Source of the DNA: an uncultured virus (IMG/VR IMGVR_UViG_3300022841_000008)
Lineage: Duplodnaviria; Heunggongvirae; Uroviricota; Caudoviricetes
Strand: one strand, 5' to 3'
Length of the DNA: 56,796 nucleotides
Virus record (IMG/VR): IMGVR_UViG_3300022841_000008
Shown here piece by piece: positions 1 through 49,914 of this stretch (its first letter is position 1; every line of letters starts with the position of its first letter). Both the position numbers and the translations under genes were made by a program. Below the pieces are notes generated by a model. It saw only the letters and a program-made list of their open reading frames with translations, did no database searches and was not told where the DNA came from.

Positions 1-59
1 ATATAACGTCCTTCACCTTGAATGCTGTAAAACAGCTCTGCGATTTTAATTTTACTCAT
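1..59 (-). CDS. queE: 7-carboxy-7-deazaguanine synthase QueE (radical SAM), N-terminus only; runs off the window edge
   Basis: Manual translation from ATG at 59 gives MSKIKIAELFYSIQGEGRY, the typical QueE/NrdG E-x-F-x-S-I-Q-G-E-G start; folE and queD-like genes are nearby. Confidence 0.85.
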   Translation of the reverse strand, partial: MSKIKIAELFYSIQGEGRY

Positions 60-240
60 AGTTTATTATACACTCTTTTTCTGTAATTGCCAAGAACCGT
101 TGCCTTGATCTAGCCATTCTAATGTGTCTCCTTCTTTCCAATTTTGCATATCTAACAGATCTTGCGGTATTGGCATAATAAGATCGCCATTCTCGGGATC
201 TTCTTTTAGGGTAACTGTCCAGTGTGTCATATTCTATCAC
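52..240 (-). CDS. hypothetical protein (Arg-rich, 62 aa)
   Basis: ORF overlaps both neighbours in the operon. Confidence 0.5.
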   Translation of the reverse strand: MIEYDTLDSYPKRRSREWRSYYANTARSVRYAKLERRRHIRMARSRQRFLAITEKECIINYE

Positions 241-421
241 TTAATAATATTTTACAAAGTAATGCGTCTTGTTCGTTATTGAACTCAAACGACATTGAAT
301 TTTCTGTAGGATGGGATGTGTACTTATCACCAGGAAGCCCAAACTGTTCTAAAACCATCGCGCAGGTTTCATTCCACCAATGACTATTTTGATTATCCCA
401 AGGAACGAGTATAGTATTCAT
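227..421 (-). CDS. hypothetical protein
   Basis: 64-aa ORF with ATGA overlap to the upstream gene. Confidence 0.7.
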   Translation of the reverse strand: MNTILVPWDNQNSHWWNETCAMVLEQFGLPGDKYTSHPTENSMSFEFNNEQDALLCKILLSDRI

Positions 422-672
422 CGGCCTCTTAAATTAGTACTAGTCTTACTAATCTTAGGACCTGCGCTTTCAAAGTCCATGCCCGCCATGCGACCTTCAT
501 ACTTACTACCATTCCAATTCATCAATAGTTTAACACTCTTGTTCATAACCACAGTAAGGTTACGTCCCTCGTTACACTGCATGACTTCAGCCTCCATCTC
601 TCTTTTACTGGAAACCTGAGTAACAGTACAGGTGTTATCGTGCCTAGTTATTACACTCATTTTGTCCACCAT
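418..672 (-). CDS. hypothetical protein
   Basis: 84-aa ORF in a tightly packed operon. Confidence 0.7.
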   Translation of the reverse strand: MVDKMSVITRHDNTCTVTQVSSKREMEAEVMQCNEGRNLTVVMNKSVKLLMNWNGSKYEGRMAGMDFESAGPKISKTSTNLRGR

Positions 673-1154
673 TCTTCATAAGGAAATTCAATCCACACAT
701 CGTTTTCGGCTTTGTTAACTTCCATACCACAGTAGTTCATACCTACGCTGCATTGGCTAGATAAGTTATCAACAACAACAGCAAATCTTACGTTGTTACT
801 CCAGATCTGTTGCCAACTGGTGTCATCTGGAAAACAGCCACTTGGCCAATCATTCATCAGCCAGTTTAGTGTACTGCCTTGATCATTAATGTCGTCAACA
901 ACAAGAATGTTCTTTCCGTAAAACGCATCTTCAGCCATGCCTAGATTGCTAGTACATTCTCCGCCGTCACGCAAACTGATATCTAACGATTGCATGGGAA
1001 CGTTTAAGTAATGGCTGATCATTACAGCAGGCAATAATCCGCCTCTTGTAAGTCCTACAATGAAATCCGGCTTCCAATTATCTGCGGCAATTTCTCTACA
1101 GATAGTAGAAACTAAACCTTTAAATTTTCTGTCATTAATTATGAGTTTGTTCAT
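657..1154 (-). CDS. type I phosphoribosyltransferase (Gpt/HGPRT-like)
   Basis: IVGLTRGGLLPA, PRPP-binding motif ILVVDDINDQGST, C-terminal WIEFPYE. Confidence 0.9.
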   Translation of the reverse strand: MNKLIINDRKFKGLVSTICREIAADNWKPDFIVGLTRGGLLPAVMISHYLNVPMQSLDISLRDGGECTSNLGMAEDAFYGKNILVVDDINDQGSTLNWLMNDWPSGCFPDDTSWQQIWSNNVRFAVVVDNLSSQCSVGMNYCGMEVNKAENDVWIEFPYEEWWTK

Positions 1155-1611
1155 TTTGTTCTTTACGAGTTTTTAAATAATATTCATTTTGAATCCATTC
1201 ATCATTTACTAGAAATCCCCATTCTCGTTTGTGGGGACCTGGCATAAACAATGTCCAAGGAGTTATTCCTTCTTTTAATTCAATGCGGTGATAACTAGTA
1301 GGGCTAGACACGCGAAAATGACCGGGTCCACGCCACTTACGAATCTCGCAACTTTTTGTACCATCTGGATTAAATTCTGGAATCCATTCATAATAGCCAC
1401 CTTTTAAAATTAAAGTAAAATAACTCCATGGATGATCGTGAACATCATCTGGATCACCTTTATGGAACTTGTGTAGAAACACATTAAACGGAAAATGCTT
1501 TCGATCTTTTAGAAAAAGATAATAACGGGTTAACAACGGTTCGTTGCTCACTCGATCCATAATTATACGTTTACGACCCAGCCTATCTAAAAAATCGAGA
1601 AACCATTTCAT
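1135..1611 (-). CDS. cupin-fold protein
   Basis: HDHPW...LILKGGYYE and later YHRI...WTLF, matching cupin motifs 1 and 2. Confidence 0.7.
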   Translation of the reverse strand: MKWFLDFLDRLGRKRIIMDRVSNEPLLTRYYLFLKDRKHFPFNVFLHKFHKGDPDDVHDHPWSYFTLILKGGYYEWIPEFNPDGTKSCEIRKWRGPGHFRVSSPTSYHRIELKEGITPWTLFMPGPHKREWGFLVNDEWIQNEYYLKTRKEQNEQTHN

Positions 1612-1647
1612 TTACGTGTCTCCATATTTACTAAAGAAGCAATACAC

Positions 1648-2364
1648 TTATCGCTTATTGGATTCTTGGAGACTCAATGTATCAAAGAACTCTTTCTTTG
1701 TACCTGGATCTTTATTAAACGCACCTTTAAGCACTGAAGTAGTTGTTGAACTATCGTGTGCCATTATGCCTCGGTTCTCACAACATCCATGAGTCATTCT
1801 TAAATATACACCTACGTTTTCTGAATCAGTTGCTTTACTAATTTCTCGAGCAATGTCATTACATAGTTCCTCTTGTAGGGTGCCACGGCGAGCGCACCAC
1901 TGAGCAATGCGAGTATACTTGCTAAGACCAATTAGTTTTTCTGCCGCAATAATGCCAATATAAGCAACCCCAGTAACGGGTTGGTGATGATGTGAACACA
2001 TACTACGAAGTTCACTGCGAACCACGAGCATGCCTTCGTAACGGTCTGCCGAATTGTTTGGAAATGCTGTTACGTCTGGTGCTGGATCATATCTGCCTGT
2101 CATGATTTCATTAAAGTACATTTTAGCAAGCCGCTTTGCAGTGCCTTTGCTATTTGGATCTGTTTCTCGATCAATAAGCAAGCGATCTAGCACACCTTCA
2201 AATGCTTCTGCTGCTTCGGTGATTAGTGTATCCTTTTCAACATCGCTAACGTATTCGCTGATGTTGTCTCCTGCCCAAAACCGTTTGTTATCGCGTTTGA
2301 GTTTGTCGCGGATAACCTGGCTTAGCGGTCTTCCGTCTTCTTCTCTATAATTCAATTGTGTCAA
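1648..2364 (-). CDS. folE: GTP cyclohydrolase I
   Basis: SMCSHHHQP, IGLSKYTRI, LQEEL, HGCCENRG; TTG start preceded by GGAGA. Confidence 0.95.
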   Translation of the reverse strand: MTQLNYREEDGRPLSQVIRDKLKRDNKRFWAGDNISEYVSDVEKDTLITEAAEAFEGVLDRLLIDRETDPNSKGTAKRLAKMYFNEIMTGRYDPAPDVTAFPNNSADRYEGMLVVRSELRSMCSHHHQPVTGVAYIGIIAAEKLIGLSKYTRIAQWCARRGTLQEELCNDIAREISKATDSENVGVYLRMTHGCCENRGIMAHDSSTTTSVLKGAFNKDPGTKKEFFDTLSLQESNKR

Positions 2365-2370
2365 TATATT

Positions 2371-2398
2371 TCTCCGATGTTTAAGCAGTGGATTGCCT
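2371..2398 (-). promoter_or_regulatory. candidate hairpin/pseudoknot sequestering the folE ribosome-binding site
   Basis: mRNA AGGCA-AUCCAC-UGCUU-AAACAUC-GGAGA; loop UCC is complementary to GGA of the Shine-Dalgarno. Confidence 0.4.
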
Positions 2399-2406
2399 GT
2401 ATAGTT

Positions 2407-3480
2407 TTATTTTAGCATCTCTAATAGTTTATTGCAACTAAAATAATGTTCAGTTAATGCATCTACTTGTTTATTTAGGCTGGGTAAAAACTTTTCGTAA
2501 TTTTCCATGTACTGTATAATCTTGTAGCAGATTTCTTGTCTATGGATATTATAGTTCTCCCAAGTATCAGTCCATTCGCTCGGATACTTGAAAGTATCAA
2601 ATGCCATTTCGCTGTAGCTTAGTCTATCTGGCATCATTGGAACAGCGCCCACTAATGCACCTTCATACCAACTAATGCCTAACGTTTCTTGCAAGTTTGC
2701 ACTAAACACAATCTTAGATTGTCCTAGCAGATTGTGGTATTCATTCTTTGTCAGCTGTTGATCCTGACATACAACAAACTCATACTGAGGCAAGTGCATA
2801 GCTAAGTCACGAAAGATATCTACTTGTTTCTCTGGCGCTATGCGATGAGGGAACAGTATAAGGTCACGCTTTGGCATGTTCTTATACATAGTCAATGTAT
2901 CTTCCATATACTCCATGGGCCACCCAGTCTGGACAATCTTCTTAGAAACTTTATAGTTATAAACTGTACCTAAGTTAACCTCTAACAAATTGTTACGAAA
3001 CATATCGATATGAAAATTCGTAGCAAAATAGTTATGATCGAACGCATGAAAGAAACTTTTCTCAGCGTGTCTAACCCAAGGCTTATTACCAACAAGACGT
3101 CCTAAAAAGTCTTGTGGGTCATAACTGCCAGCATGCCATAGTCCATGTGTAGTTACTGGAATACCCAGTAATTCGCTCATGTACTTGAGATTGATGATAC
3201 CAGGGTGCCAAGCATCAGTAAATATAAAATGATCACCTGGGCGAACGGCTCCATTACAAAATAAACGGCCCAGCTGCTCAACTTGACTAGCCTTGTATAT
3301 ATTAGTTCCGCCAAAGTTGAGAAACGCTCCAGGAGTAGTTGCACTAGGAATATCCGCAGGGCCTGATATAATTTGAACATTGTGTCCTTTCTCTCGTAGT
3401 AAGGCAGGCACATGGGACTGCCATTGTCCAGTGTACCTTGTCTCGACTGCTTCTAAATCAACGAGAAAAATTCTGCTCAT
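2407..3480 (-). CDS. GT-B fold glycosyltransferase (GT4-like)
   Basis: LFPHRIAPEKQ and ANLQETLGISWYEGALVG (E-x7-E nucleotide-sugar motif). Confidence 0.8.
   Translation of the reverse strand: MSRIFLVDLEAVETRYTGQWQSHVPALLREKGHNVQIISGPADIPSATTPGAFLNFGGTNIYKASQVEQLGRLFCNGAVRPGDHFIFTDAWHPGIINLKYMSELLGIPVTTHGLWHAGSYDPQDFLGRLVGNKPWVRHAEKSFFHAFDHNYFATNFHIDMFRNNLLEVNLGTVYNYKVSKKIVQTGWPMEYMEDTLTMYKNMPKRDLILFPHRIAPEKQVDIFRDLAMHLPQYEFVVCQDQQLTKNEYHNLLGQSKIVFSANLQETLGISWYEGALVGAVPMMPDRLSYSEMAFDTFKYPSEWTDTWENYNIHRQEICYKIIQYMENYEKFLPSLNKQVDALTEHYFSCNKLLEMLK
2409..2437 (-). promoter_or_regulatory. sigma70-like promoter for folE
   Basis: TTGCAA-N17-TAAAAT within the 3' end of the glycosyltransferase gene. 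Confidence 0.55.
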
Positions 3481-3715
3481 TGCGCTTTCCGTTATTATCC
3501 CAACGTGGGTTCTTGCCTAGGTAAGGCCGGCGCGGTCGCTTGCTTGCTAGGAACGCACCATAGTTAGGAGCACCTTCTTTGCGGTAAATTTCCGCAGGGT
3601 CAAACTCTCGAAGTTCCATACGACAAAAGTCTTGAAACGCTTCCAAGTCATCAAAGATCCGAACAATGTCGGGGCGATTTTTAAAATAGGCAACGTCGCG
3701 GTAATTCTTAGCCAT
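3458..3715 (-). CDS. hypothetical protein
   Basis: 85-aa ORF with AGGA RBS. Confidence 0.75.
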   Translation of the reverse strand: MAKNYRDVAYFKNRPDIVRIFDDLEAFQDFCRMELREFDPAEIYRKEGAPNYGAFLASKRPRRPYLGKNPRWDNNGKRNEQNFSR

Positions 3716-3745
3716 GTTAGCTTTCCTTAGTACTTAATAATATTA

Positions 3746-4126
3746 TTATGGTTTGTATTCGATGATACCATCGGATTCACCGTCTTCTGACACTACAATT
3801 TCGTAGTATCGATTTGATCCATATGCTGGAATCAAATGCTTTTCCAAGATGTCTGTTGCAATCATTTCGCAACTCTTGTGATTCATTTTACCGTCTTTAA
3901 TAAATTCTGCCAATGCCCACTTAACAAGGAAGAACTCTAATTCACGGTCTAAGTGTGTAACACTAATCTTTACTTCAACTTTGAACATGTGTCGATGTTC
4001 ATTTTCAAGAAACTGGATACGTGGATCAATTGATCCAGCGTTTGGGTAATAGTGAAACCCTTCAAATTCTGTACGAACTTTAATAAACGTCATAGTTGCT
4101 GGGCGAATGTCTTGTTTAATAATCAT
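3746..4126 (-). CDS. QueD-paralog T-fold protein, DpdL-like (putative CDG decarboxylase)
   Basis: QueD architecture (FEGFH...HxH...SCEMIA...VSED), but with LENEHRHMF (LxxxHRHxF) instead of CxxxHGH. Confidence 0.7.
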   Translation of the reverse strand: MIIKQDIRPATMTFIKVRTEFEGFHYYPNAGSIDPRIQFLENEHRHMFKVEVKISVTHLDRELEFFLVKWALAEFIKDGKMNHKSCEMIATDILEKHLIPAYGSNRYYEIVVSEDGESDGIIEYKP

Positions 4127-4371
4127 AGAATGTACTTTGATGATATAGGTCCTTTGCCTTGCAACCCGAAATGCTCTTTGATTGTAGATCTACAAAGTGT
4201 ACGTTGATACTGTGCTGCCTCTGTTGGACCTTCTTTAGTAAATTGCATATTATCAATAATTGTAACACATTCTTCTAGCAATAGTCTAGCAAAATTCTCT
4301 TGATTGGTAACATTGACACCTAAAATATTTTCAGTTGCCTTGTCTAATGCACGTTTAATTTTTTGGTTCAT
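4123..4371 (-). CDS. hypothetical protein
   Basis: 82-aa ORF with ATGA overlaps. Confidence 0.65.
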   Translation of the reverse strand: MNQKIKRALDKATENILGVNVTNQENFARLLLEECVTIIDNMQFTKEGPTEAAQYQRTLCRSTIKEHFGLQGKGPISSKYIL

Positions 4372-4637
4372 CTCATACTTTCCATAGTTATAATTTTACC
4401 AAGTTCCTCACCGAGGTCTTTGTCATCGTGAATGATGTACATTTTATTATTGTCCTCATCACGTTTACGATCATAGTTACGAACTTCTACTACAAAGCCG
4501 CCACTACCTTTGTAGACCTGTAGTTTCATGCCATCGCTATGAAAACGCTCTTCTGATTCTCTAGTGGGCTTCTCGTACTCAATCGCGTCGTCATTTTGAT
4601 TAAGGACCCAGTTGCGGAATCGTTGTTTCAATGTCAT
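4368..4637 (-). CDS. hypothetical protein (N-terminus possibly extended via a frameshift)
   Basis: 89-aa ORF; the frame stays open upstream to about 4769 without a start codon. Confidence 0.7.
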   Translation of the reverse strand: MTLKQRFRNWVLNQNDDAIEYEKPTRESEERFHSDGMKLQVYKGSGGFVVEVRNYDRKRDEDNNKMYIIHDDKDLGEELGKIITMESMR

Positions 4638-4767
4638 TTTTATGCTCTTTACTTTATTAACTGCGGTGCGTGTGCCTTGAACTCGGCAACCGCTAGTGCC
4701 TATTCCACGTGAATTACGGGTTGATACTTTACTAGAGGAGTTGTGTATGCTGATCCATGTGGTCCCA

Positions 4768-5280
4768 TTACTTTACAATCTCATCGTTTTTGTATTGTGA
4801 CCAGTCTGCAAACTTACTACGATCCATTAGCGTATGTAGACTATGAGACCATACGCCGGGATTGGTTGCTTTAAAATCTTTATCATCAATCTTTAGCATT
4901 GTATTATAATTCCATAACTTGATATATGGAATAGGCACACGAATCTGCGGAATAAAGTTATTGTATTCGCAGTAACCGCTTTCATGAAACTCTTCTACCT
5001 GGCTCATTGGAATATCTAGACTGCACAGATACTCTTTCTTCAAAAAGTAAAAGATCATCTCTTCCCAACACTTATGCTCTTCGTAGTCTTTAGGGTTAAA
5101 ACTATGATTAGCGCCAAAGAAGATATGCTCACAGCCCTGTAAATTCGATGCAATATTTCCTACAGGTTGTACGCCTGTAACAAACAAAGTTTTTAACCCG
5201 TATGCAGGAGTATGTTCTACTTCATTACCGATAAAGAATACAATATCGTCAGCAACGCCGTCTGCGTAATCACGTTTCAT
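4768..5280 (-). CDS. hypothetical protein in the deazaguanine cluster
   Basis: 170-aa globular, enzyme-like ORF (FIGNEVEHTP, HIFFGANHSF, NPGVWSH). Confidence 0.8.
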   Translation of the reverse strand: MKRDYADGVADDIVFFIGNEVEHTPAYGLKTLFVTGVQPVGNIASNLQGCEHIFFGANHSFNPKDYEEHKCWEEMIFYFLKKEYLCSLDIPMSQVEEFHESGYCEYNNFIPQIRVPIPYIKLWNYNTMLKIDDKDFKATNPGVWSHSLHTLMDRSKFADWSQYKNDEIVK

Positions 5281-5723
5281 TCTTCAAAACCTCCATCTTT
5301 CATTTCTTGTGTGCGTTTACGTTCTTGCAGTTCTGCTTCATGGACATCACACAATGTACGTATCCATCCGTCGCCTCGTCTCTTTCCAACACTACCACAC
5401 TCTTCGCATGTAATGTCTGCCCACGATTCTGCCATGCTAACTAGACCGCGAATGTAGTCATCGCCGCCATCGTAGTAGAAACGCAGTCCACCAAACTTTT
5501 CTTTAATCTGTGCCACAGTTACTTGTGGAACAACTTCCGCTGTTTTATTCTTCCAGTTGAGGTGATGCTGGATATTAGAACAGAGTGTTTCTAACAGTAG
5601 ATACCAGCCAGCGCCTACAGAAAAGCCGCCGTAATCACCTGCAAACATCTTGGGAAACTGTTCTTCCATATTCTTGGCAAATGTTTCGTACTTGTTAAGT
5701 CCTTGATCTTCACCCATTACCAT
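5277..5723 (-). CDS. phage hypothetical protein with a CxxC...CxxH zinc-finger-like tail
   Basis: QIKEKFGGLRFYY and CEECG...LCDVH. Confidence 0.8.
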   Translation of the reverse strand: MVMGEDQGLNKYETFAKNMEEQFPKMFAGDYGGFSVGAGWYLLLETLCSNIQHHLNWKNKTAEVVPQVTVAQIKEKFGGLRFYYDGGDDYIRGLVSMAESWADITCEECGSVGKRRGDGWIRTLCDVHEAELQERKRTQEMKDGGFEE

Positions 5724-5920
5724 GTACTCAAATCAGTGATGTCAATTTTAGTATCGACATCTTTATCATTGTCATTAAAGAGATTAAATTCAATAGTAAT
5801 CCCTTCCCCTATGCCACTACTACGATCTACCCTGATAGTGAACCATTCTATTTCTTTAAAATGGGTCACTATCTCGGTGAGCTTTTCAATTTGTTTACGA
5901 TTAAGTGATAGTGTATTCAT
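5717..5920 (-). CDS. hypothetical protein
   Basis: 67-aa ORF directly downstream of a sigma70 promoter. Confidence 0.75.
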   Translation of the reverse strand: MNTLSLNRKQIEKLTEIVTHFKEIEWFTIRVDRSSGIGEGITIEFNLFNDNDKDVDTKIDITDLSTW

Positions 5921-5926
5921 ACATTA

Positions 5927-5955
5927 ATTATAGCATCAAATTGCTCAGTTAGCAA
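5927..5955 (-). promoter_or_regulatory. sigma70-like promoter
   Basis: TTGCTA-N17-TATAAT. Confidence 0.65.
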
Positions 5956-5957
5956 TG

Positions 5958-7496
5958 TTATTCTGCTACCAGTTTATCCAACTCGCCATCTTCGCGATCA
6001 TCGTTCCACGAATCCTTGTCTTCACTGCCTTCTTCATAGAACAGATCGTTTGAGATATTCGTAACGCCACCACGCAAGCGTGAGCCTTCCAAATTCTGCA
6101 TAAAGCCTCTAGTCTCTGCGTCAGCAATCATAGCAAATGCGGATTCTTTGTCTGGACAGCCAAACAGCTCTTCAACAAAACGATCAAAGTACAGAATGTT
6201 ACGGGGAACCCAATCACTATACTCGTCACTCATGTCACGATCTTTGTTCTTCTTCCACAGTCTCCAGTCTGGTCGGATCTTAGCCTGTTCAATATCTGCC
6301 AAGTTGTTAGCACGTTGTACAGCAACAATATGTTGATAAACATTATGACCCATCATCAGTGCATAACCAAAGCTGTCCCACGAAGTCTTGCCTTCTTTGC
6401 CAATCTTGTTTAGCATTCCTGGCTTGTAGTGACAGATATCTGAAACATTTAGTCTGCGACCAATCTCGCTTTCGAATGGAAACGGAATGTCCGGGCGCGA
6501 CGCAAGTGCTTTATTATCTGGAGCTTTGTCCATAATAACACTCCACCGCTTGGCTGTATGCTGACTGTTAGTGTAAACAAGTCCGTGTGCAGTTGCAATA
6601 AACGGCGACGCACAATCAAAGCTAATTGTAAAGTTAGGATTAATATGTTTACGGACCTGACGTTGAATACTGGTCAAATAGCACGACCAATCTAATTGTG
6701 CAGTGCCCAAGAAGTGCATCCAATCCTTGCCTTCTAGCATACCGTCAAACCGCATAGTGATTATGCGGCGTAGTGCAATATGCATCTTACACATATTCGC
6801 ACCGCCCATTGCCCACCCTTCAGCGGCTTTATCGCCCCAAACTTTCTTATCGCTAAACTCTTTAACACCTTCGTACCACGCTTCGGCAGTATCCCAGTTA
6901 CTACCTTGTAGAACGTTTAGGAACTTAGTAGCACCTAAACGATTGTCCAAGAAGTACTTGTTATTGTGACGAGTTTTATCTAGACAGTCTTCAAATGACT
7001 TTAGTCCTGTCTTTGGACTATGAATATGGTCACATGCCCACGTAGGAACGTCTAGCATCATTGACCAATCAGCAGTTAGTTCAAGCCAGTTAAGAATATC
7101 ATCACGAGTCTTGTTAGCTTTTTTGCCTTCAAAGTCTAGCCAATCAAACTTAAGGATACCTTTACCAATCTGGTAACCACCGGAGTCGCCCAAGATCATT
7201 GTTTTGTTGCGATCACGTTGCTGAATCATTGAGTCATGATCCATAGTCTTAACTAGATCTAGTTGTGCATGGCCTGCTGAATACAATCCGTACTTGTAAT
7301 AGAAGTATCCTTCTTCTGGGTTTAAGAAGTTCATACCTTCGATGCCTCGATCAAAACCCGCTGGAATTCGATCTTTGGGTACAAAATCTCCCTTGCGTTG
7401 TTTTGCCACGTAGGTAGAATAGAAACTACTAATCGCAGGCAAATAGACTGCGTAGTCTTTCTGTAGGGGTGTTAAATCAACTGGTTGTTTGCTCAT
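5958..7496 (-). CDS. dpdA: TGT-fold deazapurine transglycosylase (DpdA-like)
   Basis: ILGDSGGYQ (TGT DSGG motif), MMLDVP, NVLQG, MHFLG, SFDCASP; clustered with folE, queE and the queD paralog. Confidence 0.8.
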   Translation of the reverse strand: MSKQPVDLTPLQKDYAVYLPAISSFYSTYVAKQRKGDFVPKDRIPAGFDRGIEGMNFLNPEEGYFYYKYGLYSAGHAQLDLVKTMDHDSMIQQRDRNKTMILGDSGGYQIGKGILKFDWLDFEGKKANKTRDDILNWLELTADWSMMLDVPTWACDHIHSPKTGLKSFEDCLDKTRHNNKYFLDNRLGATKFLNVLQGSNWDTAEAWYEGVKEFSDKKVWGDKAAEGWAMGGANMCKMHIALRRIITMRFDGMLEGKDWMHFLGTAQLDWSCYLTSIQRQVRKHINPNFTISFDCASPFIATAHGLVYTNSQHTAKRWSVIMDKAPDNKALASRPDIPFPFESEIGRRLNVSDICHYKPGMLNKIGKEGKTSWDSFGYALMMGHNVYQHIVAVQRANNLADIEQAKIRPDWRLWKKNKDRDMSDEYSDWVPRNILYFDRFVEELFGCPDKESAFAMIADAETRGFMQNLEGSRLRGGVTNISNDLFYEEGSEDKDSWNDDREDGELDKLVAE

Positions 7497-7845
7497 ATTC
7501 TCTCCATAATTTTACTGTTATATCTAATTGTTGTCTTGCCTGTTCTAAATTGTCTAATGCTATTTTAACAGCCTTATTGTCATTTGCCAAGCTATGCAAC
7601 TTTAATTCTTCGTCACGCTTCTTACGTACCCATTGTACTATGTCTAGTATATCTTGATCAAGGCCTACAGTAGCATAGCTGGTGGATAAGTATTGCCAAC
7701 TGGAGCCATTAAACACTTCTATATCAGTGCCGTTGATTCTCAGCATACCCATCATTGGATTAGCAGCGTTCGGGGCAACATACGGCAGGACAGTGTTGCC
7801 GCTATTTACCGTTACACCGTTATAACCTTGTAAGCCCTTAATCAT
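7477..7845 (-). CDS. hypothetical protein
   Basis: 122-aa ORF between the clamp gene and dpdA. Confidence 0.75.
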   Translation of the reverse strand: MIKGLQGYNGVTVNSGNTVLPYVAPNAANPMMGMLRINGTDIEVFNGSSWQYLSTSYATVGLDQDILDIVQWVRKKRDEELKLHSLANDNKAVKIALDNLEQARQQLDITVKLWREYEQTTS

Positions 7846-7847
7846 AT

Positions 7848-8585
7848 TTAGGCCGCTTGTGCTGGAATGATATATTTGTAAGTAGCAAGACCGCTGTCTA
7901 AAGTAATCTGGATAGCACCTTCATTACTCAAAGACATCTTTGTGTTGTTAACATCCGCAATCTTAAGGATACTCAAGATTGGCACAATAGGCCAAGTCCA
8001 ACCACGATCCAATTTACCTGCAACGTTTTGTGCAAAGATAAACTCACCGCCGTGTGTGCTAGCATCACCAAAGATAAACTTTAGATTGCTACCATCTGTT
8101 TTTGCCAAGAATGTTGGATGTTCATTATTAGCACCAGCTTGGAAGTTAAAACGCTGTACTGCGGCAACGCTAGGTTCAACCTCTACATCCCACTTAACAC
8201 CGCGGAACTTAACAGTCTTCATTTTCTCGTTAATGATTTCTGAATTCATAAAACGGTAATCGTTTTTAAAGTCGCCATCTTTGTTTTCAAAATGTAAACC
8301 AACTGGCAATGTTTCTCCGTTACGTTCTGCTGTAGTGATACTAATTTTAGCATCTTCTTTGTACTCAGCACCGTCTAGCAAATACTTCAGTTTATTAAGT
8401 TGTGGCATGCCAAACACACCAATCATATCTGGTTGCGGGCTAGCAGTAGTAGCTTCCATGATAACTGAACGATCGTCAGCCATAGAGTTAATAGTTGTAC
8501 CACGTTCTGTACCTGTGACCTTAACTGTAGTTAAAAATCCTAGATTCTGGGTGTGTGATACGATGTCTTGTAAAATGTCTTTCAT
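7848..8585 (-). CDS. DNA polymerase sliding clamp (gp45/PCNA-like)
   Basis: 245 aa, adjacent to polB, PCNA-like C-terminus IQITLDSGLATYKYIIPA; a clamp loader is in the window. Confidence 0.65.
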   Translation of the reverse strand: MKDILQDIVSHTQNLGFLTTVKVTGTERGTTINSMADDRSVIMEATTASPQPDMIGVFGMPQLNKLKYLLDGAEYKEDAKISITTAERNGETLPVGLHFENKDGDFKNDYRFMNSEIINEKMKTVKFRGVKWDVEVEPSVAAVQRFNFQAGANNEHPTFLAKTDGSNLKFIFGDASTHGGEFIFAQNVAGKLDRGWTWPIVPILSILKIADVNNTKMSLSNEGAIQITLDSGLATYKYIIPAQAA

Positions 8586-8609
8586 TTAGATTTCTCCGGT
8601 TATATGAAT

Positions 8610-8645: not shown

Positions 8646-11315
8646 TTACTCAAAGTCAAATAGTTTGTTAAAATTATTATCACTGCGGGTTGAACTGAGG
8701 TCCCAGTCTAGTACACCGATTAAGTTCTCCAACTTTTCATCAATGACAGCATTTTCCATTTCTGCATCATTAAATGGTAAGTCTTTAAACCACTGCGGCA
8801 AACGCAATTCATCTACAGGATATGCAACACTAGTATAGCCCATTGGATTATCTTTAACCTTACACACAATAACTTTAGCACCGTCTGTAATAGCTACTGA
8901 ATATTTGTCATCCATCATACGCTTTAAAGTGTTCCAATTCAAACTAGCACGGACATGTCCGGGCATTGTAGTCTTACCTGCTTTCTTTTCTTTGTCACGA
9001 TACTCTGAGATCTTATTGGCACGTTTAGGCGAACCTTTCTCCCAACCTGGACGTAGTTTAAACTCAGTGCGGAATTCAGTGATATACTCTAGAATAGATT
9101 CTTGTCCATCACCATTTAGCACTCGAGTTAATACTTGACTTAAAAACTCTTGGATAATAACCGGGGTATCTGAACGCTTAAGGTCAAGACCCATGGCCTT
9201 GATCTTACCACCCTGTCCGTCCTTGTCTGCTCGCTTGCCTTCTTTGTCATAGTAGAGGACTGCGTATCGTTTTTTAGTAATGAATAGTCCTTTGGAAGCA
9301 ACAATCTCGCGACCTGCTTTAATGACCTCTCCTCGTGATTTAGGTACGTGGAATGCGTCTTGCATAAACTTGGGGAATGTGTCATTTACTGTTTCTCCTA
9401 TAGTATCGTAAAGTTCAATTACACTCTCTCTTGTCCAAGGCAGTGTGCCCTTGTCAATCTCTTTTCTCAGCGTGGCATATGCTGAGAAGTAACAGGAGTC
9501 AGTATCACCATAGATAATTGCCTTACCTGTGTGATTAAACTCGCCGGTGATAATTTCATTTACTTTACCAGCCATGTGTTGTGCAATGGCACGGCCTGTA
9601 AGTGTAGTTGATTGTCCAATACGGTTGTCAAAGAATCTACAGCCAGCGTTAAGAATAGCACCGTACAAACTGTTCAAGTTAATCTTCTTGACTAATTGAC
9701 GCTTGTCCCAGTATTCTTCTTCAATCTTATTACCTGCCTTAATACAGTTTTTAAGTTTAGCCTGCATTTCTTTACGTTCAGCATACCAACGCTTTAGCAA
9801 TCCAGGAATAATACCTTCTTTTTCGTAAGTAAAGATAGTGCCGTTAGCACTCAGCATCCAAGGCTGATTGCTGTCAAAGATCAAATCATATACCTGTGCA
9901 GCACTTAGGGTATCGTGACCGCCGTCTTCCCAGTCAATAGTTATTTCTCGACCAACGTTGCGATCCATAACAGCAGTGTATTCTAAGCTACCAAAGATAC
10001 CTTCCCACGCACCGGCAAAGCTACGGCCTTTTGCCATCTCTGCGGCAATAAAGTCTTTAGTACCATCTTGACGCAATTGTCCAACAATTGTTTCTGGGCC
10101 CATGTTCAATGCACGAATTGCTGAAGGATATAGTGAGTTAATATCCAGAGAGCCAATCCACTCGTGAATACCTTTCTTAGGAAACGCAACATATGCACCA
10201 GCAGCCTGTGTATCTACTTCAGTGTCACGGCTGATGCGATTAGGAACAATAAATCCACGCTTGTGAGCTTCGTTAATAATGGCCTGTTCAGTAACAGCTA
10301 CTGCGCCCATAGTAGTCTGCAACAACACAGTACACTCATGTGCTAGTGTATTGGCAAGATCCATAAACTTTAACTTCTTGTCAAGTTTCTCAAGAAGCAT
10401 AGTATCCTGTCTGTTATATTCAATGAAGCGTTTAAAGTCATTGTTATACAACTGATCTAATGTACCTTCGTAGACAGTTTTGTTCTCGCCAATTTCCTGC
10501 TCGCCAATAGCGTCTAGTCGATAGGTATGCCGTTCTTCATACGTGTACTTACGATACAAATTTAAACTGTCTAAGTGTACACGCCCAATCAAGTCATATG
10601 TAGTAGCAGCCTTACCGTACTTTTCGTATTCACGCTTCTTGGGGAATTGATTCCACAAGCAGAATCTACGTGTGTCCTCTTTGCTTAGAACTTTAGTAAC
10701 ACGATTTACCGTGTAGGGAATATCGAAGCCTTCACTGTTCCATCCACTTAGTACGTCCGAGTCTTGAATTAGATCTAAGAATGTGTCTAACATGTCTGCT
10801 TCGTTATCAAACAGTATAGTGTTAGGAAATTCTTCAACCTGCTTCTTAGCTTCTTCCATACTTAGTGTCTTAGGAGGAATTGCTAAACACACCATTGTCT
10901 CCATCCATTGTAGGTAGACAGCGATAGCAGTAATTGGCATGAATGCATCTTCCGGCGAAGCATAGCCACGTTCTGGATCAAAGTCTACCTCAATGTCGAA
11001 CCATGCTACATTTAGCTTAGGGGCATCTTGATTAAGATAGTTGTCTTCTAGACAACGATAGATTGGGTTGATATCGCTTTCATACAGTTTCTTTCCACTG
11101 TATATTGAAAGCTCTTTGCGATGCTCTTTAACGCTTCTGCTTGAAACTCTGGTTAAAGGTTCGCCCTTGATTGAAAGGAACTTGCCTTTTGGGTCTGGGT
11201 AATAAAATATATGACGAGCAGGATATTCTTTAAAATGTCTTTCGCCTTTTTCGTTTCGTTCAACGACGCGAATTAAATCCTGCTCTCTGTCAAAGAAAGC
11301 GTCTACGTAACTCAA
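8646..11315 (-). CDS. polB: family B DNA polymerase (gp43-like)
   Basis: ExoI FDIE, ExoII GWNSEGFD, ExoIII YNRQD; polymerase motifs DINSLYPS, KINLNSLYG, YGDTDS; TTG start. Confidence 0.97.
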   Translation of the reverse strand: MSYVDAFFDREQDLIRVVERNEKGERHFKEYPARHIFYYPDPKGKFLSIKGEPLTRVSSRSVKEHRKELSIYSGKKLYESDINPIYRCLEDNYLNQDAPKLNVAWFDIEVDFDPERGYASPEDAFMPITAIAVYLQWMETMVCLAIPPKTLSMEEAKKQVEEFPNTILFDNEADMLDTFLDLIQDSDVLSGWNSEGFDIPYTVNRVTKVLSKEDTRRFCLWNQFPKKREYEKYGKAATTYDLIGRVHLDSLNLYRKYTYEERHTYRLDAIGEQEIGENKTVYEGTLDQLYNNDFKRFIEYNRQDTMLLEKLDKKLKFMDLANTLAHECTVLLQTTMGAVAVTEQAIINEAHKRGFIVPNRISRDTEVDTQAAGAYVAFPKKGIHEWIGSLDINSLYPSAIRALNMGPETIVGQLRQDGTKDFIAAEMAKGRSFAGAWEGIFGSLEYTAVMDRNVGREITIDWEDGGHDTLSAAQVYDLIFDSNQPWMLSANGTIFTYEKEGIIPGLLKRWYAERKEMQAKLKNCIKAGNKIEEEYWDKRQLVKKINLNSLYGAILNAGCRFFDNRIGQSTTLTGRAIAQHMAGKVNEIITGEFNHTGKAIIYGDTDSCYFSAYATLRKEIDKGTLPWTRESVIELYDTIGETVNDTFPKFMQDAFHVPKSRGEVIKAGREIVASKGLFITKKRYAVLYYDKEGKRADKDGQGGKIKAMGLDLKRSDTPVIIQEFLSQVLTRVLNGDGQESILEYITEFRTEFKLRPGWEKGSPKRANKISEYRDKEKKAGKTTMPGHVRASLNWNTLKRMMDDKYSVAITDGAKVIVCKVKDNPMGYTSVAYPVDELRLPQWFKDLPFNDAEMENAVIDEKLENLIGVLDWDLSSTRSDNNFNKLFDFE

Positions 11316-13265: not shown

Positions 13266-14282
13266 TTATAAAGCAGCAACCATTGTCTTATAATCTTTAA
13301 AGTTGCTCTTACGATCTTCTAGACCACGCAATCCCGGGTTAATAGGCTTAGTAACATCTCTAACATTACTAAAGTCGTCGACATTTGGTTGTACTCTAAG
13401 TTTCCAGTACCAAATAGCAATCTTTGCAGCAACCGCAGGTTTTTCTGCTAGCTTAGGATTATTCACTAGATCTATGCCAATTGCTTTTCCGGCAATACCG
13501 TAGTTATATCTGCCGGTGATTTGAATGTATCCACGACCTTTGTACTTTGCACCGTCGCCTACTTTAGTATTGCCTAATATTTTAGCTTTCTTAGGAGCAT
13601 ACTTAGGATCATATTTGCGGAAGTCCAAACTGCCTCCGTACTCTACCATGCTTTGAAAGTCGTGGCTTTCATGAGCAACCTGCGATAAGAATGCAGCAAG
13701 TTCTATTCCTTTAATGCCAGCAGCTCTTGCTGTTTTAATTAAAAAGTTTTCGTGTGCATTAGTTGACGCCAATGCAGCCTTAGGCTCTGCTTTTGGTTCT
13801 ATTTTTTTAACTTCTGGTTTCTTTTCTGCTTTTTTAGCAGCGGGTTTTTCGTCTGTATAAACATCAGGAACTTTTACTTCTTGTCCGGGTGTTAGTTTAG
13901 TAGCATTAGTAAATCCGTTTAGTTTCATAATAACAGCAGGACTAATACCGTTGTCTCTAGCAATACTATAAACCGTATCACCTTTCTCTGCAACCTGTGA
14001 CACAATATCACCTGCATTAGCACCTAAAGCACCTAGTGCCATAGCACCGCCTGCTACCCAGTCTTTCCATCCTTCTTCAATGTCTTCAGACTTGGCACGA
14101 CCGGCTTTCATGTTAGCCATCCAATGTGCCATGCGAGCTTTTTCACCTGTGCTATTCTTTGCAGTCTTTCGTAGACTACTTACACTAGCTTTAGTGTTAA
14201 CACCTGAGCGTTTTGCTAGACCTTTACGTCCCGGCTTCTTGCCGTCGGCAAAGTTTTCAGTGATAAATTCACTTGCTCTCAT
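13266..14282 (-). CDS. putative virion-associated LysM + GH19 peptidoglycan hydrolase
   Basis: LysM (KGDTVYSIARDNG...LTPGQEVKVP); GH19 (AAFLSQVAHES, YKGRGYIQITGRYNY); N-terminus MRASEFITE. Confidence 0.85.
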   Translation of the reverse strand: MRASEFITENFADGKKPGRKGLAKRSGVNTKASVSSLRKTAKNSTGEKARMAHWMANMKAGRAKSEDIEEGWKDWVAGGAMALGALGANAGDIVSQVAEKGDTVYSIARDNGISPAVIMKLNGFTNATKLTPGQEVKVPDVYTDEKPAAKKAEKKPEVKKIEPKAEPKAALASTNAHENFLIKTARAAGIKGIELAAFLSQVAHESHDFQSMVEYGGSLDFRKYDPKYAPKKAKILGNTKVGDGAKYKGRGYIQITGRYNYGIAGKAIGIDLVNNPKLAEKPAVAAKIAIWYWKLRVQPNVDDFSNVRDVTKPINPGLRGLEDRKSNFKDYKTMVAAL

Positions 14283-21279: not shown

Positions 21280-21312
21280 ATTTTGAATTATTCCTTAGTT
21301 TCTTTATAGTTA

Positions 21313-21342
21313 ATTGTAACACTGACAGCTATAGTATGTCAA
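21313..21342 (-). promoter_or_regulatory. sigma70-like promoter for clpA
   Basis: TTGACA-N18-TACAAT. Confidence 0.55.
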
Positions 21343-21346
21343 CAGG

Positions 21347-31025: not shown

Positions 31026-31390
31026 TATTTTACGAACGCTGTTAGGTCAGGAGCAATCCATCCTAGTGGCTTAAGGACTTTACCATCTTCACGCTTACGA
31101 ACCTTGCCAGTTTCTTTATCAATTTTAGCAAAGTTAGTTTTCATAACTTCTTTCCACGCACCTTCAGCATCAAAGCCAGCACTGTGAATAGCACCAATTG
31201 TAACAACTAAAATATCAATTAGCGCATCAAGAATCTCTACTCGATCTTTAGCAATGATTGCTTGATTTAATTCTTCTGCTTCTTCTTCAATTAGTTTCAA
31301 ATACAAATTAAATTGATCAGTATTGCCTCTGCCCACTGTTTGGTCGCAGGCTTTCATAAATGTTTCTTGGTCTCTAAATGGATTCATCAT
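31025..31390 (-). CDS. MazG-like/all-alpha NTP pyrophosphohydrolase
   Basis: LIEEEAEEL...EILDALIDILVV, N-AK, KREDGKVLKP. Confidence 0.85.
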   Translation of the reverse strand: MMNPFRDQETFMKACDQTVGRGNTDQFNLYLKLIEEEAEELNQAIIAKDRVEILDALIDILVVTIGAIHSAGFDAEGAWKEVMKTNFAKIDKETGKVRKREDGKVLKPLGWIAPDLTAFVK

Positions 31391-36766: not shown

Positions 36767-36778
36767 TACTGGAAATCC

Positions 36779-49464: not shown

Positions 49465-49914
49465 TTAAGCCTCGTAAACTGCGCTGTTGGAACCATGTTC
49501 TGCGCACTCAACTCGTACACAATAACAACGATTATTAGTCTTTTCGCGTATCAGTGCGTCGGCAAAGTTGAATGCATGTTCTGCAAACTTCTCTGCACCT
49601 ACACCATCAAAGATTCTAATCTCTACCAGATCTAATGCTTCTAGTTCTTTAAATTTTTCTAAATGTGGATCTTGTTTATCCAATGCCAGTTTGTGATCAA
49701 AGTGATCTTCGAGCCATGCCTTAAGCGGTTTAAGTCCACCGAAGTCTACTGCCCAGTTCTTGTCATCTAATTTATCACATCCAAAGGTAAATGTAAACGC
49801 TAAACTGTAACCATGTAACAAATGACAGTGACTGTGATCTGCGTTAGGTTGACGGAATACCGCTGACAGCCCAATGTTGTGTCCGTAATGTTTTATTGAA
49901 TAAAATTTTGCCAT
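49465..49914 (-). CDS. queD: 6-carboxy-5,6,7,8-tetrahydropterin synthase
   Basis: HCHLLHGY, VDFGGLK, FDH, GAEKFAE, ECAEHGSNSA. Confidence 0.88.
   Translation of the reverse strand: MAKFYSIKHYGHNIGLSAVFRQPNADHSHCHLLHGYSLAFTFTFGCDKLDDKNWAVDFGGLKPLKAWLEDHFDHKLALDKQDPHLEKFKELEALDLVEIRIFDGVGAEKFAEHAFNFADALIREKTNNRCYCVRVECAEHGSNSAVYEA

Follow-up and report, generated by a model that had tools for sequence, protein, structure and literature searches.

In bacteria, the Dpd system (dpdA-K) is carried on genomic islands and places preQ0 or ADG in DNA. The GT4 enzyme QTMAN/GTDC1 mannosylates queuosine in tRNA, the acceptor being the cyclopentenediol of queuosine, and the alpha- and beta-glucosyltransferases of phage T4 glucosylate 5-hmC. 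Phage HY126 glycosylates a DNA base with a GT-B enzyme, an arabinosyltransferase whose target is 5-hydroxycytosine (PMC13326640). For phage 7-deazaguanines, the system of Cellulophaga phage phiST comprises FolE, QueD, QueE, DpdL and DpdA3 and yields dDG in DNA (PMC10516641). DpdL has the signature LxxxHRHxF and was proposed as a decarboxylase of 7-carboxy-7-deazaguanine (CDG), and DpdA3, DpdL, FolE, QueD and QueE are also entered for phage PA5oct in Data S1 of that study (Cui et al. 2023, PMC10516641). The DNA of PA5oct is resistant to G-site restriction enzymes.

The window analyzed here is the whole stretch of 56,796 nucleotides from an uncultured virus (IMG/VR IMGVR_UViG_3300022841_000008), with the cluster of interest at positions 1 to 7496. 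We read the cluster as a QueC-less, DpdL-type module of a PA5oct-related uncultured giant phage whose glycosyltransferase (GT) may place a sugar on deazaguanine, and give this reading a probability of about 0.45. The locus shares with phiST the QueC-less pathway logic, the LxxxHRHxF signature, a transglycosylase filed as DpdA3 (via its PA5oct copy) and a phosphoribosyltransferase (PRTase) with a homolog in the phiST genome. However, the phiST cluster has a short DpdA3 of 259 aa, an AAA_18 kinase, a MazG-like gene and no GT, whereas the window encodes a 512-aa DpdA together with a GT4 and a 170-aa protein. The arrangement is shared with PA5oct/Wroclawvirus, where DNA polymerase and clamp are followed by DpdA3 (45%), GT (43%), DpdL (31% identity), PRTase and QueE; PA5oct encodes the 170-aa protein, FolE and QueD elsewhere in its genome and, unlike the window, has no cupin.

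A predicted QueC-less 7-deazaguanine module

ORF calls placed every gene of positions 1-7496 on the minus strand, and the named genes sit where the first-pass annotation had put them. The queE gene was correctly identified there, but only its codons 1-19 lie inside the window (3..59, minus strand; translation MSKIKIAELFYSIQGEGRY, window 59..3), as the gene runs past the left end. The full 281-aa ORF, taken from identical DNA of contig L003/L006, matched phrog_2076 'QueE-like' (E 1e-50) and five NCBIfam QueE models (E 2e-10 to 3e-16, all under their cut-offs). FolE, the GTP cyclohydrolase I (238 aa; 1648..2364, minus strand), matched PF01227 (E 1.1e-37) and NCBIfam FolE models with E-values down to 5e-38, under their cut-offs. 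The canonical QueD (CPH4 synthase, 149 aa), already noted at 49465 and located 42 kb from the cluster (49465..49914, minus strand), matched PF01242 (E 3.8e-14), phrog_2389 (E 3e-39) and, under the cut-off, TIGR03367 (E 2e-8).

The QueD paralog in the cluster (126 aa; 3746..4126, minus strand; phrog_17812) carries the motif L40xxxH44-R-H46-x-F48 and lacks the Cys at the QueD position. We assign it as DpdL because this motif matches the published DpdL signature; a tblastn search with it recovered dpdL from phiST, ACP17 and PA5oct. QueC (PF06508) was found in none of five related contigs (97-186 kb), whereas the control search was positive in 13 of 14 genomes.

The 512-aa protein (5958..7496, minus strand) is a long DpdA-type, DpdA3-listed guanine transglycosylase. 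Its AF2 model (pLDDT 90.7) has a TGT fold (Foldseek E 5.5e-9; VIA Z 19.7 over 305 residues), and its profile aligned the DSGGYQ and LD motifs to TGT. It is 44.7% identical to the PA5oct-like protein, of which the copy in PA5oct itself, QCG76197, appears under DpdA3 in the published table (Cui et al. 2023, PMC10516641). In hhalign comparisons, the window DpdA matched ACP17 DpdA2 with 96.9% probability, and its family matched phiST DpdA3 with just 61% probability over 83 columns. The family and fold assignments of the core enzymes, together with the DpdL motif, bear out the earlier proposal that the cluster serves 7-deazaguanine modification of DNA, which we regard as very probable; by sequence, its core is of a known kind, the published dDG-type, QueC-less system. 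The first-pass annotation had overlooked this correspondence, as well as the identity of the QueD paralog with DpdL and the lack of QueC.

Gene order was identical in all 80 related IMG/VR loci, as far as each contig reaches, so the arrangement goes beyond chance. The proposal that the genes form one operon is consistent with their common direction and tight packing, but promoter-like sites occurred at chance level (28 counted vs 22.8 +/- 4.9 in shuffles).

Accessory genes of the cluster

The PRTase gene (657..1154, minus strand; 165 aa, type I purine, Gpt/XGPRT-like) matched PF00156 (E 3.7e-12) and phrog_8995, and its best NCBIfam match was xanthine PRTase (E 2.7e-9, under cut-off). Its homologs follow the pathway, as, of 24 matching phage records, 21 are from deazaguanine-pathway phages (11 PA5oct-like, five of the phiST group, four Flavobacterium immuto and BUCT-ZZ01). 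The PRTase had been listed among enzymes that could decorate the base; it is better read as a putative guanine-salvage enzyme.

The adjoining 158-aa product (1135..1611, minus strand) is likely a cupin-like metalloprotein. It matched phrog_4786 'cysteine dioxygenase' (E 1.2e-33) and has invariant H58, H60 and H108; it had no Pfam match, and PDB sequence matches were not significant, so the assignment is tentative. Members of the family were found in 97 other phage records, most of them from phages of Mycobacterium, Gordonia, Burkholderia and Xylella, and no GT/DpdL phage was found in the organism tally or among the 40 matches listed. PA5oct has an SDR/epimerase-like fragment at this position instead. 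The hydroxylation step once suggested for the cupin is thus not supported, and the gene is probably a passenger in the cluster.

The 170-aa protein (4768..5280, minus strand) belongs to an unnamed family with many invariant polar residues and received no name from Pfam, PHROG, NCBIfam, PDB or Atlas. By tblastn it was found only in 11 PA5oct-like and two ACP17 records, the ACP17 match lying between folE and dpdA and ending at the dpdA start, and it is present in all related IMG/VR loci reaching that far. This distribution indicates a protein that travels with GT-type clusters. An 85-aa ORF between DpdL and the GT (3458..3715, minus strand), with no match in Pfam, PHROG or NCBIfam, is conserved in place, with 32-67% identity, across most of the related IMG/VR loci. 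A 148-aa Cys-rich ORF (5277..5723, minus strand; no match in the same three databases) and the 67-aa ORF next to it (5717..5920, minus strand; no family match) are present in only part of these loci and are lineage-specific.

A GT4-like glycosyltransferase next to DpdA and DpdL

As first described, the GT gene (2407..3480, minus strand; 357 aa) lies directly upstream of folE, with one small ORF (3458-3715) separating it from the QueD paralog. The protein had no Pfam match at E 0.01 and no PHROG match of its own. Its AF2 model (pLDDT 77) had glycogen synthase, BshA and MshA as best Foldseek matches (E 3e-9), and comparison with known structures (VIA) gave Z 22.4 and rmsd 3.5 with 316 residues aligned. 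In structure the protein comes closest to retaining GT4/GT20 enzymes that act on small-molecule acceptors (sucrose-phosphate synthase, BshA, MshA and OtsA), and the tetrahydrobiopterin glucosyltransferases 5zer and 9v0l are among the nearest; the GT-B folds matched also include the HY126 arabinosyltransferase structure 9ir0 (E 3e-6, Foldseek rank 40). Residues E265 and E273 are invariant in the homolog alignment, the X1 and BCSR5 homologs pass Pfam Glycos_transf_1, and Atlas neighbours are viral Glycos_transf_1 clusters. Pfam QTMAN_N matched nothing at E <= 1 in five related records, and the Atlas neighbours carry only Glycos_transf_1. The fold, the invariant residues and the homologs indicate that the protein is a genuine GT-B/GT4-like, retaining-type glycosyltransferase.

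A GT stands beside DpdA/DpdL in seven phage lineages, including the cultured PA5oct, ACP17, X1, BCSR5, Phosso and BUCT-ZZ01, with closeness of GT and DpdL read in the annotated loci of PAC2, ACP17, Phosso, X1 and BCSR5. The order is DpdA3-GT-DpdL in PAC2 (PA5oct-like), p170-DpdA2-GT-DpdL-QueE with overlapping genes in ACP17, GT-DpdA-DpdL-QueE in X1 and DpdL-GT-x-FolE in Phosso; in BCSR5 the GT adjoins a DpdA-like ORF (hhalign 86.7%), and in cyanophage BUCT-ZZ01 DpdA-DpdL is flanked by two other Glycos_transf_1 genes. Other phages with DpdL clusters, MA9V-3, Ahp1, D479, Bakedbeans and RHph_I1_18, showed no GT among the proteins scanned.

Searching from the GT side, we found DpdL also present in 17 of the 22 phage records with a GT match (tblastn) and a DpdA-like gene in 23 of 26 GT loci of prokaryote genomes; the supposed link of the GT to dpdA and que genes is therefore upheld, as the GT is not found mostly without them. 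Fourteen alphaproteobacterial chromosomes have the order Vut_1/YhhQ-like transporter, GT, DpdA-like, and the DpdA-like protein of Shimia is homologous to the window DpdA over its full length (hhalign 100%, E 1e-63). The bacterial Dpd system shares with the window a TGT-like DpdA that inserts 7-deazaguanine into DNA, but these alphaproteobacterial loci differ from it in consisting of a YhhQ-like transporter, a GT and a long DpdA-like gene. Since the triads lack DpdL, FolE and QueE, the DpdL product cannot be the only acceptor of the GT. At the far end of the GT matches stand five phages, Ep032, Ep026 and three PhiXhv phages; in PhiXhv-15, the one inspected, the GT has GlmS and an LmbE-like deacetylase as neighbours and no que genes close by. 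On this evidence the GT probably belongs to the deazaguanine pathway.

Proposed pathway and alternative roles of the glycosyltransferase

By homology, FolE, QueD and QueE would convert GTP to CDG, which the putative activity published for DpdL would turn into 7-deazaguanine. The long DpdA-type transglycosylase, again by homology, would insert the new base into phage DNA in place of guanine, and we infer that the Gpt-like PRTase would return the released guanine through GMP to GTP, the pathway substrate. The GT4-like enzyme, probably with the 170-aa protein, would be a working part of the module; most likely it would transfer a sugar from an NDP-sugar donor onto deazaguanine, most probably once the base is in DNA. 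The product would be a sugar-bearing purine that blocks restriction enzymes. We hold only tentatively, at somewhat below even odds, that the final DNA base carries a sugar. The proposal resembles QTMAN/GTDC1 in having a GT4-type enzyme act on a 7-deazaguanine derivative in nucleic acid after TGT-type insertion, although the substrate there is tRNA. Like the HY126 and T4 enzymes, the window GT would be an NDP-sugar transferase of a phage that works within a pathway for modifying DNA bases; however, those enzymes act on the hydroxyl of a modified pyrimidine, whereas the product of the window pathway is a purine analogue without an obvious hydroxyl, and the likeness to the HY126 enzyme is one of fold.

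That 7-deazaguanine has no hydroxyl to serve as acceptor argues against a sugar on the base. It also favors an alternative, which we consider rather unlikely, in which the phage makes plain dDG and keeps the GT beside DpdA for another reason; the target of the GT might be the cell envelope, a protein of phage or host, or a different DNA base, or the GT might serve as a non-catalytic or regulatory partner of DpdA. DpdL clusters do work without a GT, as in phiST, where replacement with plain dDG is complete, the distant GT homologs have a GlcN-type context without que genes, and PA5oct reportedly has several other DNA-modification enzymes (PMC7824862). However, GT-DpdA adjacency outlasts gene-order shuffling in the seven phage lineages and is found in the 14 bacterial chromosomes with a deazaguanine-type transporter, which makes an unrelated GT target hard to explain, and the invariant catalytic-type pair E265/E273 speaks against a dead enzyme.

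Alternatively, the GT could act on the free base or a precursor rather than on DNA, so that DpdA would insert a glycosylated base, or a transient activating or protecting sugar, required for making or delivering 7-deazaguanine, would be missing from the final DNA; we regard this as improbable. The nearest structures (BshA, MshA, sucrose-phosphate synthase, 5zer and 9v0l), with their small-molecule acceptors, would suit DNA no better than a free base or precursor, and the bacterial GT gene directly follows that of the base transporter. Huimycin and dapiramicin are N2-glycosides of free 7-deazaguanine base; however, TGT holds its base in a narrow pocket, which would have to be rebuilt for a glycosylated base. 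Neither the ACP17 nor the phiST pair of dpdL and dpdA, expressed alone in E. coli, produced dDG, and other enzymes may be needed according to the authors (PMC10516641), as would also fit a GT that works in the module. This failure does not discriminate, because the phiST pair failed too, though phiST has no GT.

TubE and ToyH, of tubercidin and toyocamycin biosynthesis, are the analogues for a third alternative, in which the PRTase would join CDG or 7-deazaguanine to PRPP to give a 7-deaza-GMP analogue, and at least part of the base would be incorporated into DNA from the dNTP pool by the phage family-B polymerase. The PRTase gene does belong to the cluster in the window as well as in PA5oct-like phages and BUCT-ZZ01, GT-less DpdL clusters carry dNMP kinase-like, dCTP-deaminase-like and MazG-like genes, and the window has a MazG-like gene (31025-31390), but we consider this route very improbable, given that every one of these phages has DpdA, all known deazaguanine DNA marks are argued to be post-replicative (Cui et al. 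2023, PMC10516641), the best family match is a Gpt-type xanthine/guanine PRTase, and no PRTase was matched in ACP17, X1 or the bacterial triads.

The preferred reading remains a possible sugar placed on deazaguanine by the GT. The literature searches yielded no description of a sugar-bearing deazaguanine in DNA, in line with the initial remark that none is known from phage DNA. If the reading is true, a kind of base so far unmeasured, a DNA purine bearing a sugar, would be part of the genome of this phage.

Gene content and layout of the cluster

Positions 1-8600 of the window hold a co-directional run of minus-strand genes with about 40% G+C, which lies downstream of a family-B DNA polymerase gene (8646-11315) and a clamp-like gene (7848-8585). 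Read along the minus strand, the run comprises the genes for a 512-aa TGT-like protein, hereafter the long DpdA (5958-7496), two small ORFs (5717-5920 and 5277-5723), the 170-aa protein p170 (4768-5280), two further small ORFs (4368-4637 and 4123-4371), a 126-aa QueD paralog with the DpdL motif (3746-4126), an 85-aa ORF (3458-3715), the 357-aa predicted glycosyltransferase GT (2407-3480), FolE (1648-2364; PF01227, E 1e-37), a cupin-like protein (1135-1611), a PRTase (657-1154; PF00156, E 4e-12), two more small ORFs (418-672 and 227-421) and the start of queE (59-3), of which only 19 codons fall in the window (MSKIKIAELFYSIQGEGRY). The long DpdA and GT were assigned by fold, and p170, the 85-aa ORF and the six small ORFs are without a family match. 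The canonical QueD lies apart, at 49465-49914. In contigs whose DNA is identical to that of the window, queE encodes 281 aa, and this product matches phrog_2076 (E 1e-50) and, below their cut-offs, the NCBIfam models for QueE (E 2e-10 to 3e-16). The 150-aa ORF after queE was excluded from the module, its family being a virion structural protein (phrog_13349).

These results agree with the gene inventory of the first-pass annotation. Its placing of the genes in one operon was not borne out, because a scan for promoters and terminators stayed at chance level, promoter-like sites being no more frequent than expected by chance. Two strong sigma-70-like sites were seen on the minus strand, one just upstream of the queE start (65-93; TTGGCA-17-TATAAT) and the other just past the DpdA stop codon (5927-5955; TTGCTA-17-TATAAT with a TG extension). 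Megablast of positions 1-7600 against the phage collection found no near-identical DNA, and the closest record (G001), a fragment of 29 kb, does not contain the DpdA.

The 512-aa protein is a predicted long DpdA

The 512-aa protein had no match in Pfam, PHROG or NCBIfam, and none at E <= 1 in a direct PDB sequence search; its family numbers 898 representatives at 50% identity in a large protein library. The AF2 model (pLDDT 90.7) adopts the TGT (beta/alpha)8-barrel fold, with a Foldseek E of 5.5e-9 (probability 1.00) to the Z. mobilis TGT and a VIA Z of 19.7 to the T. maritima TGT 2ash (rmsd 4.5, 305 residues aligned). Comparison of the family profile with the PDB gave TGTs as the sole matches (E about 0.7-1.0), with the DSGGYQ and following LD motif aligned. 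In an alignment of 68 sequences, D104, S105, G107, P151, H261 and D294 are invariant and D149 is nearly invariant. D104 (in DSGGYQ) and D149 line up with the TGT motifs DSGGYQ and FDE, and D294 lines up with the 'SYDS' Asp of DpdA2 from Acidovorax phage ACP17. In the Z. mobilis TGT, the Asp of DSGG(F/Y)Q, that of the LD motif and the nucleophile Asp serve in catalysis and base binding. By its modelled fold and its aligned aspartates, the 512-aa protein is a predicted member of the TGT/DpdA superfamily; no solved DpdA structure stood among the best 50 Foldseek or VIA matches.

The protein shares 44.7% identity over residues 7-450 with its counterpart in a PA5oct-like Pseudomonas jumbo phage, and the PA5oct copy (QCG76197) is entered as DpdA3 in Data S1 of Cui, Hutinet et al. 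(2023; PMC10516641). In hhalign comparisons, the window family aligned with ACP17 DpdA2 at 96.9% probability and with the short DpdA3 of phage phiST at 61%. The alignments suggest clear kinship to ACP17 DpdA2 and weak kinship to phiST DpdA3, and we therefore use the label long DpdA without a subfamily. PA5oct DNA has been described as withstanding five G-site restriction enzymes, which bears indirectly on the predicted action of the enzyme on DNA with complete G replacement.

DpdL and a core pathway without QueC

In the 126-aa QueD paralog and its relatives, LxxxHRHxF replaces the CxxxHGH of QueD, the window sequence being FLENEHRHMFK. Across 16 sequences H44 and H46 are invariant, L40 and F48 are nearly invariant, and no Cys occupies the QueD position. 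LxxxHRHxF has been described as the signature of DpdL, a putative decarboxylase of CDG (7-carboxy-7-deazaguanine), and DpdL has been found in phages that have DpdA, FolE, QueD and QueE and are without QueC (PMC10516641). A tblastn search with the window sequence retrieved the DpdL genes of phiST, ACP17 and PA5oct. On this sequence evidence, the QueD paralog is DpdL. Its expected partners FolE, QueD, QueE and DpdA are all present, and a search for QueC in five related contigs, of which the longest has 186 kb and is an estimated 53% complete, gave no match, the control search being positive in 13 of 14 genomes. The DpdL motif, together with FolE, QueD, QueE and DpdA and the absence of QueC from these contigs, shows that the core is the already published dDG-type pathway (dDG, 2'-deoxy-7-deazaguanosine), not a new one. 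A deazaguanine system in PA5oct had earlier been noted by Iyer et al. (2021; PMC7824862).

A GT4-like glycosyltransferase of the GT-B fold

The 357-aa protein matched nothing in Pfam (E 0.01), PHROG, NCBIfam or a direct PDB sequence search (E <= 1), and its profile gave chance matches only against the PDB. Its AF2 model (pLDDT 77) has a complete two-Rossmann-domain GT-B fold (Foldseek E 3e-9) and is nearest to retaining GT4/GT20 enzymes, namely sucrose-phosphate synthase (VIA Z 22.4), BshA (21.7) and MshA (20.6), over 304-316 residues. E265 and E273, an E-x7-E pair in the C-terminal domain, are invariant in 26 GT sequences; such a pair is a signature of GT4 enzymes. The homologs in Xanthomonas phage X1 (45.5 bits) and Burkholderia phage BCSR5 (42 bits) exceed the 26.4-bit cut-off of Pfam PF00534 (Glycos_transf_1), and the Atlas neighbours of GT are viral clusters of the same family. 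The model and the conserved residues identify the protein as a genuine, GT4-like glycosyltransferase of predicted GT-B fold. The family abounds in environmental viromes, where at least 8000 protein clusters match at E <= 0.001 (all 8000 scored candidates).

Kinship to the queuosine-tRNA mannosyltransferase family QTMAN/GTDC1 was rejected, as QTMAN_N (PF12038) matched none of five records (four related viral contigs and ACP17) at E <= 1; the same model gave signals below its cut-off in two of 14 control genomes. Neither the T4 alpha- nor beta-glucosyltransferase was among the best 50 Foldseek or VIA matches. The isoelectric points of GT and DpdA homologs are mostly acidic, one of eight GTs being basic, and are uninformative.

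GT travels with DpdA across phage lineages

Eighty IMG/VR loci of the window's lineage (73-100% DpdA identity) share one gene order wherever the contig reaches, namely clamp, DpdA, p170, DpdL, GT, FolE, cupin, PRTase and QueE. This order could be mere lineage synteny, and the gene neighbourhoods of other lineages, in which the order differs, are the stronger evidence for linkage. The order is DpdA3-GT-DpdL in the PA5oct-like phage PAC2, GT-DpdA-DpdL-QueE in X1 and DpdL-GT-x-FolE in Sinorhizobium phage Phosso, while ACP17 carries overlapping genes for a p170 homolog, DpdA2, GT, DpdL and QueE. In BCSR5 GT adjoins a DpdA-like ORF (hhalign 86.7%), and in cyanophage BUCT-ZZ01 DpdA-DpdL is flanked by two different Glycos_transf_1 genes. 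A DpdL match was present in 17 of the 22 phage records matching GT, and a GT match in 17 of 29 DpdL records. Among the GT matches, those of the five records without DpdL are the most remote (24.5% identity over 65% of the query); PhiXhv-15, the one inspected, has GT together with GlmS and an LmbE-like deacetylase, and no que genes. Furthermore, the prokaryote genome collection yielded 26 GT loci, with a DpdA-like gene within the examined stretch in 23; the other three are on short contigs or contigs cut near GT. The neighbourhood co-occurrence of GT and dpdA, a check that the first-pass annotation had proposed, was thus found, and we consider it likely that GT belongs to the deazaguanine pathway.

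DpdL clusters without GT presented a second architecture. The phiST cluster, from a phage whose DNA has been reported to hold plain dDG (PMC10516641), encodes a 259-aa DpdA3 together with proteins resembling an AAA_18 kinase and MazG, and has no GT, whereas the window pairs a 512-aa DpdA with a GT4 enzyme. In MA9V-3, Ahp1, D479, Bakedbeans and RHph_I1_18, a 260-290-aa ORF beside DpdL is accompanied by dNMP-kinase-like and dCTP-deaminase-like genes, and no GT-B was found among the proteins scanned in these five phages. In Bakedbeans gp176 and in a 293-aa MA9V-3 protein, the ORF is larger than DpdL, whose match makes up its C-terminal portion. The comparison reveals two DpdL architectures, one with a short DpdA3-like protein (about 260-290 aa), a nucleotide kinase and a dCTP-deaminase- or MazG-like protein, the other with a long DpdA (420-540 aa) and GT4. 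Since phiST-type clusters do without GT, GT is dispensable for a working deazaguanine system.

GT-DpdA loci in alphaproteobacteria

Fourteen loci in alphaproteobacterial assemblies, several of them on large contigs, hold in this order a Vut_1/YhhQ-like transporter gene, a GT homolog (39-51% identity) and a long DpdA-like gene. The taxa include Pelagibacterium, Devosia, Azospirillum, Shimia, Sulfitobacter, Thalassobius and Roseobacter, and the triads adjoin integrase or resolvase genes. Over its full length, the DpdA-like protein of Shimia is homologous to the window DpdA (hhalign 100%, E 1e-63). YhhQ is a preQ0 transporter. FolE, QueE and DpdL were absent from the examined stretches. As the triads hold GT and the long DpdA without DpdL, it is the long DpdA, not DpdL in itself, that GT tracks. 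The triad may be a cellular DNA-marking module. An ABC-3C defence system lies beside the triad of Shimia, and Data S1 of Cui, Hutinet et al. (PMC10516641) includes a column for YhhQ.

Roles of the PRTase, p170 and the cupin-like protein

The PRTase, a predicted type I (Gpt-like) purine enzyme, exceeds the 26.3-bit cut-off of PF00156 with 46.3 bits, and in NCBIfam it comes closest to the models for xanthine and hypoxanthine-guanine PRTases, with scores far short of all their cut-offs. Homologs occur mainly in deazaguanine-pathway phages (21 of 24 records: 11 PA5oct-like, five of the phiST group, four Flavobacterium immuto phages and BUCT-ZZ01), and complete G replacement has been reported for phiST and immuto_2-6A (PMC10516641). 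Because each base exchange frees a guanine and the best family match of the PRTase is Gpt-type, we propose that the enzyme would return the released guanine to GMP and thence to GTP, on which FolE acts. Alternatively, it could be a deazapurine PRTase resembling TubE/ToyH.

Matches to p170 were confined to PA5oct-like and ACP17 records, all of them GT-bearing (13/13). The protein has many invariant acidic and histidine residues; a PDB profile search gave nothing, Pfam on 16 members gave no match, and in the Atlas it fell in unnamed viral clusters only, where GT-A-like leads were weak (0.85-0.87). Alignment of p170 by hhalign with the small ORFs that lie upstream of GT in X1 and BCSR5 gave no significant result (E 0.22 and 0.06). 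The protein could act as an additional enzyme in the GT branch.

In the cupin-like protein, H58, H60 and H108 are invariant (HxH...H), and the family match is to phrog_4786 (E 1e-33); Pfam on 14 members gave no significant match, and cupin matches in PDB searches reached only E 0.16-1.2. Members of the family were found in 97 phage records, most of them from phages of Mycobacterium, Gordonia, Burkholderia and Xylella, and no GT/DpdL phage appeared in the organism tally or among the 40 matches listed. In PA5oct an SDR-like fragment occupies the cupin's position. The proposed route of cupin hydroxylation followed by glycosylation is left without comparative support, and we read the protein as a probable passenger in the cluster.

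Other genes in the window

Two glycosyltransferase-like genes flank the canonical QueD, one for a 266-aa putative glycosyltransferase (48626-49426; phrog_1962, E 4.5e-28) and the other for a 204-aa sialyltransferase-like protein (50032-50646; phrog_4603, E 1.8e-5). Both were excluded from the module, as their families were seen in P1-like phages (as PmgQ/HdmD), in Pelagibacter phages and in others that have no deazaguanine genes, and not in the GT/DpdL phages. Their adjacency to QueD is probably coincidental. A role in supplying or editing nucleotide sugars or dNTPs is possible for three products, namely a MazG-like pyrophosphohydrolase (31025-31390), a UDP-glucose dehydrogenase-like protein of 265 aa whose match covers the N-terminal and central domains only (31387-32184), and a protein of 719 aa whose N-terminal domain is cytidylyltransferase-like (15349-17508). 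A ClpB-like double AAA+ chaperone (789 aa) adjoins a DnaJ homolog (278 aa) at 18910-22183, and a GroES-like or head-morphogenesis protein lies at 32349-32771. The 2345-aa protein at 39085-46122, with a T4 gp9/gp10-like N-terminus, is probably a giant baseplate or fibre protein, and smaller gp9/10-like and He_PIG Ig-domain proteins are encoded at 34319-37348. The window also encodes a UvdE UV-damage endonuclease homolog (46759-47784) and two GH19 chitinase-like lysins (13266-14282 and 23868-24503), one with a LysM domain. PhoH (25902-26666) is the sole clear plus-strand gene, the rest of the window being minus-strand.

A possible sugar on a deazaguanine base

We propose that the GT4 enzyme, probably aided by p170, would add a sugar to 7-deazaguanine already inserted by the long DpdA, that the virion DNA of the PA5oct, Paride, ACP17, X1 and BCSR5 group would carry a glycosylated purine, and that the alphaproteobacterial GT-DpdA-YhhQ-like islands would be a cellular version marking the DNA of the cell itself. 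We put the probability of this reading at roughly 0.4, and hold the presence of a sugar-bearing base in the final DNA just as tentatively. The conserved coupling of GT with DpdA counts for a glycosylated DNA base, and the lack of a hydroxyl on 7-deazaguanine counts against it. In the modelled structure, the nearest relatives of GT use small-molecule acceptors, and a free base or precursor would fit at least as well as DNA. Moreover, the bacterial triads without DpdL imply that the acceptor of GT is not confined to what DpdL makes. To our knowledge, all sugar decorations of DNA sit on modified pyrimidines (hmC, hmU and 5-hydroxyC). A GT-B enzyme that glycosylates a DNA base, in phage HY126 (PDB 9ir0; PMC13326640), provides a precedent. 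In E. coli, reconstitution with dpdL and dpdA from ACP17 or phiST gave no detectable dDG (PMC10516641), a result that does not discriminate because ACP17, with GT, and phiST, without it, both failed.

We found no report of a glycosylated deazaguanine in DNA in the literature, judged mostly by titles and the starts of abstracts, and the words 'glycosyl', 'phosphoribosyl' and 'cupin' do not occur in the main text of Cui, Hutinet et al. (PMC10516641). The core is a known kind of system, whereas the conserved GT and p170 are the new element, and the prediction concerns cultured phages. If it is true, the chemistry of nucleic acids would gain a sugar-bearing deazapurine, an undescribed class of DNA base and a new anti-restriction mark. 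It might also explain the failed reconstitution of dDG from dpdA and dpdL alone, and would account in chemical terms for the resistance to restriction of PA5oct-type phages, which are candidates for therapy.
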